Assembly (NCBI GenBank): GCA_041651415.1
Contig: JBAZJH010000004.1
Location: forward strand, 1-62,266
Source: Minisyncoccota bacterium
GTDB taxonomy: Bacteria; Patescibacteriota; Minisyncoccia; UBA6257; XYB1-36-10
DNA: 62,266 nucleotides
Reading direction: 5' to 3'
In this document: positions 4,002-59,556 of the stretch, piece after piece
Layout: each line of letters begins with the position of its first letter
Numbering within the stretch: the stretch's first letter is position 1
The notes under the pieces: model-generated
Told to the model about the DNA's origin: nothing
Seen by the model: only the letters and a program-made list of their open reading frames with translations
The model's database searches: none
Program-made: the position numbers and the translations under genes

Positions 4002-5099
4002 ATGAATTTTTTATTTAAAGATAAATGGATAAAATGGCTTCTATTTTTTGCCGTTATCAATCTTTTGATTTGTCTTTTTGCGAGATGGCCGATAATACCT
4101 TCCGGAGATTCAATAAGTTATTTTGAAGCAACGAAATTTTTAAGAGGAGAAGAAGTGGAAAAAAGTTTTGATTTTGCGACGATTTATAACAGATTATTAA
4201 CCGCTCCTTTGTTTATTTTTTTAACTTCATTATTCAGTTTTATTTTTGGAATTTACGGAAGCATGTTTTTTATCAATATTATTTTTTATCTAGCGGCAAC
4301 CGTATCTTTTTATCTTTTAGCCAATGAAGTTTTGCAAAATAAAAAGGCAGCTTTTTTAAGTTCTTTTTTCATTTTTTTGAATTACGACATAATAAACTTT
4401 GGAATAGCTCATTTAACCGATATGGCCGGATGGGCGTTTTTTATAGCCGCTTCTTTTTTGGCGGTAAAATATTTTAACCGACAAGAGAAGAAAGACTTTT
4501 GGCTGGCAGTAATTATTTCTTCCATCGGGGTTCTTTTCAAAGAATATGGAGGATTAGGAATGATAAGTTTGGTTTTTTTAATCGGTTTTTCTTTAAAAGG
4601 GAAAAAGGAAAAAATAAAAGAAATGTCGGTTGCTATTTTAACTTTCCTTTCCGTTTTAGCCGCTTATCATTTATTTTTTTATTTTTATTTCGGATACTCG
4701 TATCTCGATTGGTACGGATTCAATTTAAATTATTATCTGGCGAACCCAGCATCAAGAAAAAATTCTTACGATTTTATTTTACTGGTTAAAGTTTTGGGCT
4801 GGCTTTTTTTGGCAGGATGGCCGATTTTCGCTTTCGGTTTGATTAAAATTATAAAAGAAAAGTGGAATAAGGAAGGAATAGTTTTTTTAGCGCTGCTACC
4901 GGCTTCTTTGTTTTTTCTGGCTTGGCCGGTAATGACTCAGAGAATCGCTTTTGTTTTGGTTCCGTGGCTGGCGCTTGTTTCGGGATTTGGACTAGCGAAA
5001 ATAAAAAGCGATTTTACGCTTATTTTCTTCGTGTTTTTTTACGCTCTCTCTAGTTATTTAACCGGATATTTAATGGGAATAGTGAATGTTCCGATATAA
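4002..5099 (+). CDS. Polytopic membrane protein, GT-C fold glycosyltransferase
   Basis: Hydrophobic segments; loop motif GDSISY, then LTDMAGW and GVLFKE. Confidence 0.6.
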   Translation: MNFLFKDKWIKWLLFFAVINLLICLFARWPIIPSGDSISYFEATKFLRGEEVEKSFDFATIYNRLLTAPLFIFLTSLFSFIFGIYGSMFFINIIFYLAATVSFYLLANEVLQNKKAAFLSSFFIFLNYDIINFGIAHLTDMAGWAFFIAASFLAVKYFNRQEKKDFWLAVIISSIGVLFKEYGGLGMISLVFLIGFSLKGKKEKIKEMSVAILTFLSVLAAYHLFFYFYFGYSYLDWYGFNLNYYLANPASRKNSYDFILLVKVLGWLFLAGWPIFAFGLIKIIKEKWNKEGIVFLALLPASLFFLAWPVMTQRIAFVLVPWLALVSGFGLAKIKSDFTLIFFVFFYALSSYLTGYLMGIVNVPI

Positions 5100-5150
5100 G
5101 CAATTTGGAAGGAAAAAGGCGGAAAATTGTATTAAAATAGGGCAGAAAAA

Positions 5151-6293
5151 ATGAAACTGATTTATTTAACTTCCAAATCTTATCCCGGAAGGACAGCGGA
5201 CCATAATTTCGTGAAAAATATGGCAAAAACTTTTTCCCAAAAACTTGGGGAAGATTTTTTATTTGTGGGGGCAAAATTGGATGAAGAAGAATTTCAAGGA
5301 GTAAATAAGTTAAATTTGAGATTAGAAAAAAACAAAGGCAGAGCATTATTTTATTTTTTCTGGCTGCCGTTTTTTTATTTTAAAAGAAGGAATGAAGGCC
5401 TAATTTTTTTCTCCAATGATTCTTATTTGATTTTAATTTTGATTTTTTGGAAAAAGATTTTTCGGTTAAAGTATTTCATCTGTTCCGATTGGCATCAAAT
5501 GTTTTCTGATTTTAGAGATAAACTCATGGCGAGAGGAAGCGATTTTCTCATAACCACATCGGACAGATTAAAAAAACTTCTTATAGAAAAGACGGGAGTT
5601 TCGGGGGAAAAAATAATAACGGCAAGAGGAGGAGCGGACTTGAAAAAATTTCAAATAAATTCAAAATCAGAAATTCCAAGCAAAAGAAAGATGCTGGGAT
5701 TGCCAGAAGATAAGAAGCTAGTCGGATACATAGGGGGATTTAAAACGATGGGAATGGATAAGGGAATCGGAATAATGATAAAGGCGTTAAAATTTTTAAG
5801 GAGTGATTTTGCGATGGTTTTTGTCGGAGGAAAAGAAAAAGAGATAGAAGAATATAAAGAAATAGCAGAAAGAGAAAAAGTATCGGAACGAGTTATTTTT
5901 TTAGAATATCAGAAGGAAGAAAAGATAGCGGAATATGAAGAGGCGATGGATATTCTTGTTATTCCATATCCGGATTCTCTGCATTTTAGAGAGTGGGGAT
6001 TTCCGATGAAGGTCTATGAATATATGGCAAGCGGGACGCCAATAATTTATTCGGATTTGGATTTGATCAACGAGGTTTTAAAAGGGAGGGGGTTGAGCTT
6101 CAAGCCGGAAGATGAAAAAGATTTAGCATCAAAAATAAATTTTTTAACAGAGAACAAAAGCGAAGGAGAAAAGATGACAAAGGAAGCAAAAACTTCGGTT
6201 AAAAATTTTACTTGGGAAAGCCGAGCGGAGAAGATTTTGAAGTTTATAATTGGCAACTCCGACCGAAGTCGGAGCGCTCAAATTTTTAAATAA
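5151..6293 (+). CDS. GT4 family glycosyltransferase
   Basis: YIGG...KG and GFPMKVYEYMASGTPII motifs. Confidence 0.85.
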   Translation: MKLIYLTSKSYPGRTADHNFVKNMAKTFSQKLGEDFLFVGAKLDEEEFQGVNKLNLRLEKNKGRALFYFFWLPFFYFKRRNEGLIFFSNDSYLILILIFWKKIFRLKYFICSDWHQMFSDFRDKLMARGSDFLITTSDRLKKLLIEKTGVSGEKIITARGGADLKKFQINSKSEIPSKRKMLGLPEDKKLVGYIGGFKTMGMDKGIGIMIKALKFLRSDFAMVFVGGKEKEIEEYKEIAEREKVSERVIFLEYQKEEKIAEYEEAMDILVIPYPDSLHFREWGFPMKVYEYMASGTPIIYSDLDLINEVLKGRGLSFKPEDEKDLASKINFLTENKSEGEKMTKEAKTSVKNFTWESRAEKILKFIIGNSDRSRSAQIFK

Positions 6294-53111: not shown

Positions 53112-53157
53112 AATTACTAATTTCTAATTACTAATGATTAATTAATGACTAATGAAA
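53112..53157. repeat. 7-nt periodic tract (AATTACT/AATTTCT/AATGACT)
   Basis: Six heptamers with one 4-nt slip, intergenic. Confidence 0.75.
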
Positions 53158-54358: not shown

Positions 54359-54415
54359 TGTTAAAAGTTTTTTTGAAAAGTGATATAATGTAGAAATTAA
54401 AAGTAAAAAAGGAAA

Positions 54416-54454: not shown

Positions 54455-54486
54455 AATAAAAGCGGGGGTTGAAGGGAAAAAAATGT

Positions 54487-55503
54487 ATGAAAAAAATTGC
54501 AATAAACGGGTTTGGGAGAATTGGGAGATTGTTTTTGAGACAGATTATAAACGAGTCGGAGATTGAAGTGGCGGCGATAAACGACTTGGGAGAGGCGGAA
54601 AATTTGGCTTATTTATTCAAGCATGATTCGGTTTATAGAAATTGGCCGGAGGAAGTGAAAATGGAAGGCGGAGAGCTTGTTATCGGAGGAAGAAGAATAA
54701 AAATGTTGCAGGAAAAGGAAGCAGAAAAGTTGCCGTGGGGAGAAATGGGAATTGATGCAGTTGTGGAGTCATCCGGAGCTTTTGAAGGATTTCAAAAAGC
54801 GAAAGCGCATTTAACGGCAGGGGCAAAGAGAGTGGTAATAACCGCGCCGGCTAAAGATGAAGAAGGAATAGAAGGAGGAAAAACAATTTTAATGGGAATA
54901 AATGACGGAGAACTGGCAAACTGTGTTTTGTCTTCCAATGGGTCATGTACGACGAACGCGACGGCGCCGGTAGTGAAAATTTTATCGGAGAAAATAGGAA
55001 TAGAAAAAGCGGTTTTAAACACAATTCACGCTTATACGGGAACACAGCTAATCACAGACGGGCCGGTGAAGGGAAAAGATTTTTTAAGAGGCCGAGCGGG
55101 AGCGCAGAATATAATTCCATCAACGACGGGAGCGGCGATAGCGACGACAAGAGTGGTGCCGGAAATGACGGGAAAATTTGACGGGGTGGCAATGAGAGTG
55201 CCGGTTATAACCGGGTCGTCGGCGGACATCACTTTTTTAGCAAAAAGAAAAACAAGCGTGGAAGAAGTGAATCAGATTTTAAGAGAAGCGGCAAAGGAAG
55301 AAAGATGGCAAGGAGTGCTGAAAGTAACCGAAGAGCCGCTTGTCTCGGGAGACATAATCGGAGAACCATTTGCGGCGATTGTGGATTTATCTTTCACAAA
55401 AGTGGTGGATGGAGATTTGGTGAAAGTTTTGTCGTGGTATGACAATGAATGGGGATATGTGGCCACTTTAGCGCAGCATGTGAAAAAGGCGCTAAAGAAG
55501 TAA
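54487..55503 (+). CDS. gap: Glyceraldehyde-3-phosphate dehydrogenase (type I)
   Basis: IAINGFGRIGR, SNGSCTTN (catalytic Cys), NIIPSTTGAA, SWYDNEWGY motifs. ATG at 54487 preferred. Confidence 0.95.
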   Translation: MKKIAINGFGRIGRLFLRQIINESEIEVAAINDLGEAENLAYLFKHDSVYRNWPEEVKMEGGELVIGGRRIKMLQEKEAEKLPWGEMGIDAVVESSGAFEGFQKAKAHLTAGAKRVVITAPAKDEEGIEGGKTILMGINDGELANCVLSSNGSCTTNATAPVVKILSEKIGIEKAVLNTIHAYTGTQLITDGPVKGKDFLRGRAGAQNIIPSTTGAAIATTRVVPEMTGKFDGVAMRVPVITGSSADITFLAKRKTSVEEVNQILREAAKEERWQGVLKVTEEPLVSGDIIGEPFAAIVDLSFTKVVDGDLVKVLSWYDNEWGYVATLAQHVKKALKK

Positions 55504-55567
55504 GTTAAAAGTTTATAAAGTTTATAAAGTTCGTAAAGTTAAAAGTTTATAAAGTTTAAAGTTAAAA
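55501..55567 (+). repeat. AAAGTT-core periodic tract (7-9 nt units) upstream of the four-helix-bundle gene
   Basis: AAAGTTTAT AAAGTTTAT AAAGTTCGT AAAGTTA AAAGTTTAT AAAGTTT AAAGTTA. Confidence 0.85.
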
Positions 55568-55912
55568 GTGAAAGCTGAAAGATTTGAAGATTTAATATTT
55601 TGGAAGAGATCGAAATTTTTAGTAGTGGAAATTTATAGAACTTTTAGAAATGTTAAAGATTTTGGTTTTAGAGACCAGATCCAAAGAGCGGCTGTGTCTG
55701 TAATGAATAATTCAGCAGAAGGTTTTGAAAGAAAAGGAAATAAAGAATTTAAACATTTTCTTTTTATAGCTAAAGGTTCATGTGGAGAGGTGAGGTCTAT
55801 GTTAAATATTGCTTTTGAATTAGGATATATAGATAAGATAAATTTTGAGAAATTAAGTGGTATTTCAGAAGAAATATCAAAAATTATGTCTGGTTTTATA
55901 AAAAAACTTTAA
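55568..55912 (+). CDS. Four helix bundle protein (23S rRNA IVP / bAvd-like family)
   Basis: FEDLIFWKRS, DFGFRDQIQRAAVSVMNNSAEGFER, FLFIAKGSCGEVRSML motifs; GTG start. Confidence 0.9.
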   Translation: MKAERFEDLIFWKRSKFLVVEIYRTFRNVKDFGFRDQIQRAAVSVMNNSAEGFERKGNKEFKHFLFIAKGSCGEVRSMLNIAFELGYIDKINFEKLSGISEEISKIMSGFIKKL

Positions 55913-55940
55913 GAACTTTTAACTTTATAACTTTTTACTA
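55905..55940 (-). repeat. Inverted AACTTT-core tract downstream of the four-helix-bundle gene
   Basis: AACTTT AAG AACTTTT AACTTTAT AACTTTTT is the reverse complement of the upstream tract type. Confidence 0.75.
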
Positions 55941-55944
55941 TTGT

Positions 55945-56403
55945 ATGTTGATTTATATAGCAGCAGACCATAAAGGATTCAGATTAAAAAACGAACTGAT
56001 CGGATTTTTAAAGCAGCAAGGATATGACCCGAAAGATTTTGGAAACAAGAATTATGAAGAGGGAGACGATTATCCGGATTTTGCGGAGGAGCTTGCAAAA
56101 GAAATAAAACTGGCGTCAGCGGCGGGAGAAGCGAGAGGAATTTTGATTTGCGGTTCGGGAGCGGGAATGAATATCGCGGCGAATAAATTTGAAGGAGTGA
56201 GAGCAACAATCGGATTTTCCACAGACCAAATTTTTGACGCGAGACAGGAGGACGACGTGAATGTGCTGGTTTTAGCGGCTAGTTTTCTTGATGAAAATGC
56301 GGCGATGGAGATTTTGAAGGTTTTTTTAAAAACGCCTTTTTCCGGAGAAGAAAGGCATAAAAGAAGAATTGAGAAAATAAAAAGAATTGAGCTACAAAAA
56401 TAG
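55945..56403 (+). CDS. rpiB: Ribose-5-phosphate isomerase B
   Basis: IAADHKG, DDYPD, GILICGSGAGMNIAANK, GEERHKRRI motifs. Confidence 0.92.
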   Translation: MLIYIAADHKGFRLKNELIGFLKQQGYDPKDFGNKNYEEGDDYPDFAEELAKEIKLASAAGEARGILICGSGAGMNIAANKFEGVRATIGFSTDQIFDARQEDDVNVLVLAASFLDENAAMEILKVFLKTPFSGEERHKRRIEKIKRIELQK

Positions 56404-56470
56404 TTAAAAAGCTCATAAAGTTCGTAAAGTTAATAAAGTTTTTAAAGTTAAAAGTTTATAGAGTTCATAA
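56403..56470 (+). repeat. Second AAAGTT-core tract between rpiB and rpe, no gene enclosed
   Basis: AAAGCTCAT AAAGTTCGT AAAGTTAAT AAAGTTTTT AAAGTTA AAAGTTTAT AGAGTTCAT. Confidence 0.8.
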
Positions 56471-56472
56471 TT

Positions 56473-57105
56473 ATGGAGGTAATACCAAGTATAAATGAAG
56501 AAAATTTTGAGGAAATAAAAAGGAAACTTGAGATTGTCGAAAAAATCGGAGCGGAGTGGACGCAAATTGATTTTTCTGACGGAACATTCGGGGAAAGAAA
56601 AATTTTTTTAAGCCCGGAAGATTTAAAAGAAATTTCCGATAAAGTAAAAATTGAAATGGACTTTATGGCGCAGGAGCCGGAAGAAAAAATTTTGCCGTGG
56701 CTTCTTGCGGGGAAAATAAAGAGAGCAATTTTTCATTTGGAAACTTTAAGCGATATTAAAACAATAAAGAAAATCTGTTTGGAAAACGGAATAGAGCCGG
56801 GAATTTCCATTTTGTTTTCAACCGGAAAAGAAATGATTTTTCCTTTTTTGAAAGAGTTTGATTTTTTCCAAGTGCTCTCGGTGCCGCCCGGATTCTCCGG
56901 ACAAGATTTTAAAGAAGAAACAATCGAGAAGATAAAGTTTTTGCGAGAGAACTTGCCAGATGCTAAAATAGAAGTGGACGGAGGAATAAATGAAAAAACG
57001 GCGAGAAGCGCAAAAGAAGCGGGAGCGAATGTTCTCGTATCATCATCTTTTATCTTTAACGACCCGGACCCGTTTTCCGCTTATAAAAAACTTTTAGAAA
57101 TTTAA
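56473..57105 (+). CDS. rpe: Ribulose-phosphate 3-epimerase family protein (divergent)
   Basis: VIPSI, IDFSDG, PGFSGQDF, IEVDGGIN motifs; adjacent to rpiB and gap. Confidence 0.8.
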   Translation: MEVIPSINEENFEEIKRKLEIVEKIGAEWTQIDFSDGTFGERKIFLSPEDLKEISDKVKIEMDFMAQEPEEKILPWLLAGKIKRAIFHLETLSDIKTIKKICLENGIEPGISILFSTGKEMIFPFLKEFDFFQVLSVPPGFSGQDFKEETIEKIKFLRENLPDAKIEVDGGINEKTARSAKEAGANVLVSSSFIFNDPDPFSAYKKLLEI

Positions 57106-59507: not shown

Positions 59508-59556
59508 CAGTAAATAGTAACTAGTGACTAGAAAATAGAGATTGGTTATTAGATAT
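59508..59556. repeat. 7-nt periodic tract (TAGTAAC TAGTGAC TAGAAAA TAGAGAT TGGTTAT TAGATAT)
   Basis: Seven in-register heptamers between the two pilin-like genes. Confidence 0.75.

Follow-up and report, generated by a model that had tools for sequence, protein, structure and literature searches.

The DNA considered here, called the window, is a stretch of 62,266 nucleotides (positions 1 to 62,266 of contig JBAZJH010000004.1, or C4) from a Minisyncoccota bacterium (assembly GCA_041651415.1). The genome under study, labelled G000, belongs to the Patescibacteria (candidate phyla radiation, CPR), measures 741 kb and is 99% complete. Within the gap-rpiB-rpe run, between gap and rpiB, the window carries a small four-helix-bundle (4HB) gene of the family PF05635, known as the 23S rRNA intervening sequence (IVS) protein or S23p. 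The gene is bracketed by an array of AAAGTT units upstream and an array of the complementary AACTTT units downstream, which are referred to below as the left and right arms. The whole cassette of arm, gene and arm spans window positions 55501-55945. A preliminary description of this DNA, made from the sequence alone, had pointed out the gene and its two tracts, and both its coordinates and the Pfam identities are confirmed here. The genome comparisons cover 61 related genomes, whose members bear labels of the type G001 or G023. G001 is a relative from the same genus, i.e., a congener of G000, with a bin contamination of 7%.

Anatomy of the cassette

The 4HB gene is intact and encodes 114 amino acids. 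It starts with GTG, has no Shine-Dalgarno (SD) sequence and ends with a TAA stop codon at 55910-55912. The protein aligns with the PF05635 profile almost end to end (positions 1-105 out of 106), with E 1.9e-32 and a score of 112 bits where the cut-off is 33.8, and the gene was also recovered as a PF05635 member by a genome-wide search of G000. Its size, within the usual range of about 110-130 aa, and its relation to solved pentameric bundles are those of the TIGR02436/S23p family. Indeed, relatives are found in the PDB (2gsc, E 1e-11; 2rld, E 8e-5), with five chains in each entry.

Both arms overlap coding sequence. The left arm begins within the stop codon of gap and extends into the opening codons of the 4HB gene. 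It contains seven exact AAAGTT cores at 55508-55563 and eight to nine units in all, to which Tandem Repeats Finder (TRF) assigns a period of 9/16 and a score of 74-85. The right arm covers the last codons and the stop codon of the 4HB gene and finishes at the ATG of rpiB, with four exact AACTTT cores at 55905-55934 (tract 55905-55939) and four to five units in all. The unit of the cassette is TAAAGTY, repeated in steps of 7 and 9 nt. A third, gene-less tract had been described between rpiB and rpe. It was found again, fills the spacer between the two genes and consists of five exact and two degenerate AAAGTT units in the polarity of the left arm. Across the window, the double-unit pattern TAAAGTTNNTAAAGTT (at most one mismatch) has 10 matches, compared to 0.25 expected, and none of 100 shuffles reaches 10. 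The coordinates of all features are compiled in Table 1.

The sole promoter-like site ahead of the run of gap, 4HB gene, rpiB and rpe is located upstream of gap. The plus strand between gap and rpiB was scanned, and neither a promoter-like nor a terminator-like site was detected there.

Folding predictions agree with the earlier proposal that the flanks are able to pair and loop out the gene. The best inverted pair between the arms is 24 nt long and 92% complementary. As RNA, the arms can form a predicted stem of 38 bp with an energy of -30.4 kcal/mol, compared to -12.5 +/- 3.3 kcal/mol for shuffled arms. In the minimum free energy fold of 55495-55950, the stem closes the whole open reading frame (ORF; z = -3.7). 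The gene for RNase III (rnc) is present in G000 (C7:2821-3210, E 2e-36). The right arm is also predicted to pair with the solo array between rpiB and rpe (56404-56472, -27.3 kcal/mol), and such an alternative stem could enclose rpiB instead of the 4HB gene.

Table 1. Features of the gap-rpiB-rpe run in the window
Feature	Position	Strand	Evidence or remark
Promoter-like site of the gap run	54361-54389	+	TTAAAA-17-TATAAT with TG, 10 of 12 matches; consensus match only
gap (glyceraldehyde-3-phosphate dehydrogenase), upstream host gene	54484-55503	+	Pfam Gp_dh_N E 9e-36, Gp_dh_C E 7e-51
Left arm, array of AAAGTT units in 7-/9-nt register	55502-55573	+	TRF; predicted to pair with right arm
4HB gene, PF05635 (23S rRNA IVS protein / S23p)	55568-55912	+	Pfam 112 bits
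Right arm, array of AACTTT units, complement of left arm	55903-55945	+	Predicted 38-bp duplex with 55513-55558
rpiB, downstream host gene	55945-56403	+	Pfam LacAB_rpiB E 4e-42
Solo AAAGTT array, gene-less	56408-56470	+	TRF period 9, 7.2 copies
rpe, third gene of the run	56473-57105	+	Pfam Ribul_P_3_epim E 1e-33

Occupied site, empty site and gene-less arms

The gap and rpiB proteins of G001 are 90% identical to their G000 orthologues. From the gap stop codon to the rpiB ATG, the congener has a 20-nt spacer, AATTATTTTTTTGAGAAAAA, with neither a 4HB gene nor a tract. In G000, this complete spacer is replaced by the arm-gene-arm unit. The comparison of the two sequences shows that the cassette is a species-specific indel, present or absent as one unit with respect to the congener. 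The gap-rpiB-rpe synteny is kept across the order, and the cassette 4HB gene was found at none of the other 28 rpiB loci examined. Absent from the congener, the gene is not vertically conserved at this site. Two independent further assemblies of the same organism contain an identical cassette protein and identical DNA, with 0 base differences over 3.9 kb.

The preliminary description had proposed the locus as a candidate mobile or excisable unit. This view is sustained insofar as the gene and both tracts act as one unit that is absent in G001. In contrast, no target duplication was seen when the occupied and the empty site were compared, and the unit contains no transposase, although trans-acting enzymes were not surveyed. 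The suggestion that the gene-free tracts are empty sites is not supported, as the sole truly empty site found, that of G001, has no tract. The rpiB-rpe spacer of G001 is an unrelated sequence of 135 nt without an AAAGTT array, and the count of such arrays across the whole G001 genome is 0. Elsewhere among the relatives, the gap-rpiB junction is occupied by unrelated elements, namely a solo array of four AATTCTA units in G033 and hairpins in G017 and G021, which have arms of the heptamer type and no ORF; in others, the junction has no insert.

The arms of the cassette also occur without a gene in G000. In the 23S rRNA (C3 ~76100-76245, minus strand), a helix tip at Rfam model positions ~1891-1903, presumably that of helix 68 on the E. 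coli map, has an insert of 107 nt in place of its 12-nt loop. In rRNA sense, the insert is predicted to fold as a hairpin in which the AAAGUU arm comes first and is joined by a loop to the AACUUU arm, with an energy of -53 kcal/mol (z = -6.1). It has the polarity of the cassette and no ORF.

Including the one in the 23S rRNA, G000 has 18 tracts in which the AAAGTT core occurs three times or more. About 14 gene borders in this 0.74-Mb genome, at start or stop codons, are adjoined by solo arrays of the AAAGTT type. Next to plus-strand genes, five solo arrays read AAAGUU in the mRNA and begin 5-14 nt after the stop codon. Next to minus-strand genes, which include rpsL and MreB-like paralogues, seven solo arrays read AACUUU and end 1-13 nt before an SD-less start codon. 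These positions are the same as those of the left and right cassette arms relative to gap and rpiB. One array (C2:94008) is distant from any ORF end. Near-identical copies of an array are found about 2 kb apart in two cases (C3:40828 and 42821; C2:140496 and 142476). AAAGTT arrays were also observed in frame within two adjacent paralogous glycosyltransferase-like ORFs of G000 (C2:203333-203359 and 204508-204528), one of which reads KVKSYKVHKV just before an LLIAGEG motif.

The strand on which the arrays lie was considered as well. The plus strand of contigs C1-C5 has a third-codon GC skew of +0.26 to +0.46, the same for genes of both orientations, and is therefore taken as the G-rich replication strand. 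This replication-strand asymmetry is unusually strong; contigs C6, C7 and C10 are oppositely oriented. All solo arrays of G000, i.e., 16 of 16 for AAAGTT and 5 of 5 for the CTAATT family, have the named motif on the G-rich strand, compared to 53% of isolated AAAGTT hexamers (64% of the intergenic ones), and the p value of the AAAGTT array bias against this hexamer background is ~4e-5 to 1e-3. The bias is weak in two other carriers, with a ratio of 10 to 5. The bias points to a DNA-level, replication-linked step, as a lead and not as a rule.

Paired flanks and arm units across the family

PF05635 genes are found in 39 of the 61 related genomes, with 0-7 copies each. Pairing between the 80 nt before the start codon and the 80 nt after the stop codon was evaluated at the 31 PF05635 loci with enough flank. 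The median duplex energy is -32 kcal/mol for these genes and -21 kcal/mol for 58 control genes (gap, rpiB and rpe) of the same genomes (Mann-Whitney p = 2e-5). The comparison of flanks proposed in the preliminary description thus reveals an enrichment, PF05635 flanks pairing better than controls. Moreover, flank pairing reaches z <= -2.3 versus shuffles at 21 of the 31 loci. A survey by eye found a run of 7-9-nt units upstream and its complement downstream at nearly every PF05635 locus. The unit varies by locus, e.g., GGAGTTA/TAACTCC, GAATCAT/ATGATTC or GATGTTA/TAACATC. In G041, a PF05635 gene even lies within the 5' region of the 16S rRNA gene (C10 ~4849-5154). Its arms are GGAGGTGGGAAGTGTGAGGTG and the complement, and its flanks read ...GCAAGTCGAACGAGT and GGCGAACGGGCGAGTAACGCG. 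At five further loci (L038, L040, L043, L045, L083), PF05635 genes with upstream arrays of the GGAATNT or GACAAGA type have no stop codon of their own; their reading frames continue into the next gene and reach 263-429 aa or more.

G000 itself has three PF05635 genes, and AAAGTT arms are found on the C4 cassette only, with other units on the other two. The gene at C2:96591-96956 has CTAATTN arms and is kept in G001 at the orthologous site downstream of gyrA (88% protein identity). The gene at C1:12871-13248, with units of the TAAATAG type, is intact in G000 and frameshifted in G001. There, its pseudogene orthologue (C98 674-910) has its frame shifted by an internal deletion between AAAGTTTGG direct repeats. 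Contig C99 of G001 was considered as the site of a second congener-specific cassette and rejected. It is GC-rich, its ndk is 36% identical to that of G000, and it is probably a contaminant.

Homologues of the cassette protein are abundant, and the family evolves slowly. At least 7955 of them reach E <= 1e-10 among the 8000 matches listed, and the best non-self homologues among these matches, with 64-71% identity, are spread over many phyla. Six close homologues (68-71% identity) were inspected. Each of the six is preceded by AAAGT[TC] arrays and followed by [AG]ACTTT arrays. The homologues at 59-71% identity occupy at least six unrelated operon junctions. The sites of the six close homologues include the ftsE-ftsX junction, a position after pheT, the junction between an epimerase and an ABC-2 gene, a position upstream of an extracytoplasmic function (ECF) sigma-factor gene and the bAvd/reverse transcriptase junction in a diversity-generating retroelement (DGR) of Segatella hominis. 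The arms of the latter, AGTTAAAAGTTTGTAAAGTTCATAAAGTTAAAAGTTTGTAAAGTTGAAAGT-ATG ... TGA-ACTTTCAACTTTACAAACTTTCAACT, are nearly interchangeable with those of the G000 cassette. In S. hominis and gut metagenome contigs, the armed 4HB gene between the bAvd and reverse transcriptase genes is 68% identical; of the two Avd-like genes present there, one is armed.

A wider sample comprised 80 further homologues from named genomes, including 36 intact ones at >=59% identity and 29 at 45-55%. The clade motif is that of AAAGT/ACTTT arms, and 6% of background windows contain it. At >=59% identity, the motif is present on both flanks in 26 of 36 cases (21 canonical, 1 flipped, 4 mixed or direct). The carriers belong to at least eight phyla, namely Patescibacteria, Bacteroidota, Spirochaetota, Gammaproteobacteria, Desulfobacterota, Nitrospirota, Victivallales and Altimarinota. 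At 45-55% identity, none of the 29 has the motif on both flanks, and other units are found.

The spacing of the AAAGT cores is bimodal across the clade, with 7 and 9 nt, so that the mixed register of the window tracts is a clade trait. The 9-mer of the clade is AAAGT-Y-Y-R-T, and its ninth position is T in 99% of the units. When 45 mixed cassettes were compared, arm 5-mer similarity was 0.37 for pairs with at least 55% protein identity, compared to a baseline of 0.155; the value of 0.37 was reached in 0 of 10,000 permutations. The similarity is still 0.30 after the AAAGT clade has been removed. Judged by these sequence comparisons, arm sequence and protein clade are coupled, and this holds in many phyla. 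The coupling lends indirect support to the preliminary suggestion that the tracts may be binding sites of the protein. Against the preliminary interpretation stands that, in G000, AAAGTT arms are confined to one PF05635 gene out of three.

Searches with the AAAGTT triple unit gave hits in 8 of the 61 related genomes, and only four have more than two (G000 42, G023 28, G016 8 and G004 8). The reversed control pattern gave near zero hits in the 61 genomes. At least eight hits are thus present in 3 of the 60 relatives of G000. All eight unrelated genomes picked for an AAAGT-clade cassette have AAAGTT arrays, five of them with 18-268 hits. G023 contains a related cassette with TAAGTT arms as well as ORF-less AAAGTT/AACTTT hairpins, one of which is directly upstream of a tRNA gene. 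The interpretation of these hairpins as rRNA inserts was rejected, since their location was tested and lies outside rRNA. An 18-bp direct repeat, GTTAACGGGTTAATTTTA, that flanks an AAAGTT array on contig C16 of G023 was examined as a possible target duplication. It was rejected too, as the same module recurs before another array on that contig.

Known systems and explanations for the cassette

Related arrangements have been described in rRNA. The 23S rRNA IVS of Coxiella burnetii (helix 45) contains an S23p ORF, a 28-bp terminal stem and GACAGAT heptamers before the ORF, and RNase III cleaves within the stem (PMC4990558). ORF-bearing 23S rRNA IVS with an S23p/PF05635 ORF are also known from Leptospira (PMC4990558). 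The G000 cassette shares with them the protein family and an ORF within stem-forming inverted repeats (28 bp in Coxiella, 38 bp predicted in G000). As in the Coxiella IVS, tandem short repeats stand directly before the start codon, GACAGAT there and AAAGTT here, and an rnc gene is present. Moreover, the 23S rRNA of G000 itself holds the ORF-less hairpin of cassette arms. In contrast to rRNA IVS, the cassette is located between protein genes of an operon and not in an rRNA helix, and its arms have a mixed 7/9-nt register. Clade-specific arms across phyla and a link to solo arrays are not described in the published IVS work.

Solo heptamer arrays have a precedent as well. TAACTGA direct repeats were reported from intergenic regions of marine Beggiatoaceae, cyanobacteria and Bacteroidetes (MacGregor 2015, PMC4679880). 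Their patchy distribution suggests horizontal spread with 'no mechanism evident', and in Microcystis they have the same-strand orientation (PMC4679880). The solo arrays of G000, as opposed to the cassette, similarly end a few nt before starts without a ribosome-binding site and are patchy among genomes. Unlike the TAACTGA repeats, they have a different unit and share it with the arms of a resident cassette. The TAACTGA paper contains 0 mentions of four-helix-bundle genes or inverted arm pairs (PMC4679880).

A further likeness exists to repetitive extragenic palindromes and their mosaic elements (REP/BIME, REPIN) and to hairpins of the miniature inverted-repeat transposable element (MITE) type. 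These are likewise short intergenic inverted repeats with gene-less copies, positions at gene ends and a strand bias. In contrast to them, the arms described here consist of tandem arrays instead of a unique palindrome, the sole linked gene is the 4HB gene, and no partner of the REP-associated tyrosine transposase (RAYT) or transposase type was identified. The literature on PF05635, S23p, TIGR02436 and heptamer repeats yielded only the IVS and TAACTGA papers, none of which links the family outside rRNA to inverted arms or solo arrays. Hence, ORF-bearing rRNA IVS with stems and heptamers were known already, and so were solo heptamer arrays near start codons. New are the empty site of the congener, the 23S rRNA hairpin with the same arms, the polarity rule of the solo arrays, the coupling of arms and protein clade, the 7/9-nt grammar and the strand-bias lead.

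The explanation preferred here, with somewhat more confidence than doubt, is that the locus is an IVS-type 4HB cassette outside rRNA, whose arms form a probable RNase III-type stem and are probably read by the protein. With no promoter inside it, the cassette would depend for its transcription on read-through within the host operon. The arms would then pair into a long RNA duplex, which host RNase III may cut by analogy with the Coxiella 23S rRNA IVS. Such cutting would make the insert tolerable in an operon or in rRNA and would release the 4HB message. A pentameric, Avd-like protein may bind its own repeat units, as RNA or as single-stranded DNA, and this binding would serve the expression, persistence or spread of the cassette. 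The ORF-less hairpins and solo arrays would be gene-less derivatives of the same element family.

The step from arms to protein deserves a comment. Non-coding DNA that evolves neutrally would be randomised by the time the proteins differ at 30-40% of their amino acids. A constraint on pairing only would let the arm unit drift by compensatory change. In the AAAGT clade, the arm core is fixed and the spacers vary at a protein divergence of 30-40%, which is the appearance of a repeated binding site, and the 4HB gene is the only constant companion of the arms. From this, we infer that the 4HB protein probably binds its own arms.

Several points speak against this explanation. The case for mobility comes solely from comparative presence and absence in the sequences, and no target duplication or recombinase was found. 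Loss in G001 rather than gain in G000 is formally possible, although all other relatives with gap-rpiB adjacency are also without the 4HB gene. The stem lies immediately before the start codon, where it could equally block translation. In ten of the 36 close homologues, at least one flank is without the motif, and a few arms are flipped or direct. Below about 55% protein identity, arm and protein similarity show no relation, and the global Mantel-type correlation is nil (Spearman 0.005). AAAGTT arrays are found in G004, which has 0 PF05635 genes, and in G016, which has one with non-cognate arms; arrays can therefore outlive the cassette or arise without it. Lastly, the conservation of the arms could reflect constraint by a host factor.

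Among the alternatives, a host regulon is unlikely but retains some weight. According to it, the arrays would be cis leader or trailer elements of host mRNAs, like the heptamer repeats described at start codons, and the 4HB protein would be a trans regulator whose gene is autoregulated by sites on both sides. The seven AACUUU-sense arrays before SD-less starts and the five AAAGUU-sense arrays after stops, all of which abut ORF ends, would suit such elements. Yet the two orientations are different RNA sequences, and both occur. The arrays are also not conserved at orthologous genes, since AAAGTT arrays are missing from G001 and its spacers at these genes are different ones, and the genes that adjoin them have no common functional theme. 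The three PF05635 genes of G000 coexist with at least three array families, a different family for each gene, and carriers of AAAGT-clade genes tend to hold many AAAGTT arrays, both of which fit a set of regulators; G004 and G016 nonetheless hold arrays without a cognate gene. An unknown post-transcriptional regulator was proposed for the TAACTGA arrays (MacGregor 2015, PMC4679880). However, arms of this kind are also part of the 23S rRNA, for which a role in translation control makes no sense.

It is improbable that the cassette is an element moved in trans, similar to a MITE or an insertion sequence. The arms would then be terminal inverted repeats for a transposase or a Y1/RAYT-type enzyme, with the 4HB gene as their cargo, and non-autonomous copies would be seen in the solo arrays and hairpins. 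The inverted arrays at the ends, the hairpin copies without an ORF and the near-identical array copies about 2 kb apart can be read in this way. The arm units differ among cassettes of one genome, however, so that a single enzyme could not serve all of them, and the arm identity follows the clade of the supposed cargo protein across phyla. The strand bias of the arrays in G000 (16/16 and 5/5, regardless of gene direction) is what insertion into single-stranded DNA at the replication fork would produce, but it is weak in the two other genomes (10 to 5). In addition, the G000/G001 junction has no target duplication, and the 18-bp flanking repeat of G023 is a recurring composite module.

A neutral origin is disfavoured and very improbable. 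Slippage-prone repeats would have expanded in AT-rich spacers, the association with the gene would be mere co-inheritance, and arms and arrays would be functionless. Copy number and spacers do change fast, the congener has no arrays, and heptamer copy number varies among Coxiella strains (PMC4990558). Slippage cannot, however, create a complementary array across a gene. The left and right arms stay complementary though the units differ by locus, and one unit with its 7/9-nt register is kept with one protein clade in at least eight phyla at 30-40% protein divergence.

The accessory protein of DGRs, bAvd, is a small basic four-helix bundle that binds nucleic acid and reverse transcriptase. The cassette protein resembles it as a small basic four-helix-bundle protein with relatives whose crystal entries hold five chains. 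A DGR role, in which the protein would be the Avd partner of a reverse transcriptase and the repeats part of template or target RNA, is suggested by the relation of PF05635 to bAvd, by the Segatella homologue between bAvd and reverse transcriptase genes and by another homologue with an RVT_1 gene two genes upstream, but it is refuted for this locus, because a PF00078 search of the 99%-complete G000 found no reverse transcriptase; moreover, the gene stands alone between its arms without a template/variable repeat pair, and Segatella already has a separate bAvd, the armed cassette there looking like a further operon-junction insertion.

Beyond the IVS-type cassette outside rRNA, a more general reading can be offered tentatively, although it is more doubtful. 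The 4HB IVS proteins may be sequence-specific readers of tandem 7-9-nt arrays, with one unit per clade. Gene and arms together would be pan-bacterial, minimal, self-perpetuating cassettes in operons and rRNA. The solo heptamer repeats at start and stop codons would be their gene-less offspring or landing sites, laid strand-specifically at the replication fork. PF05635 is a very large family with solved structures and an unassigned function, for which the locus offers a testable candidate ligand, (TAAAGTY)n, or (AAAGUUUAU)5 as the RNA form of the unit. The locus also ties together the PF05635 family, the heptamer repeats at start codons and the rRNA intervening sequences, the last of which have so far been regarded as a peculiarity of rRNA. 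It further suggests a code of protein-repeat recognition that is possibly programmable, as well as a class of selfish elements of very small size.

Two other short-period arrays were noticed in the window, 19-26 nt past plus-strand stop codons. They are located at 53112-53155 (AATTACT/AATTTCT) and at 59509-59531 (AGTAACT). The former belongs to the CTAATTN family, which is the arm family of the 4HB cassette on contig C2.

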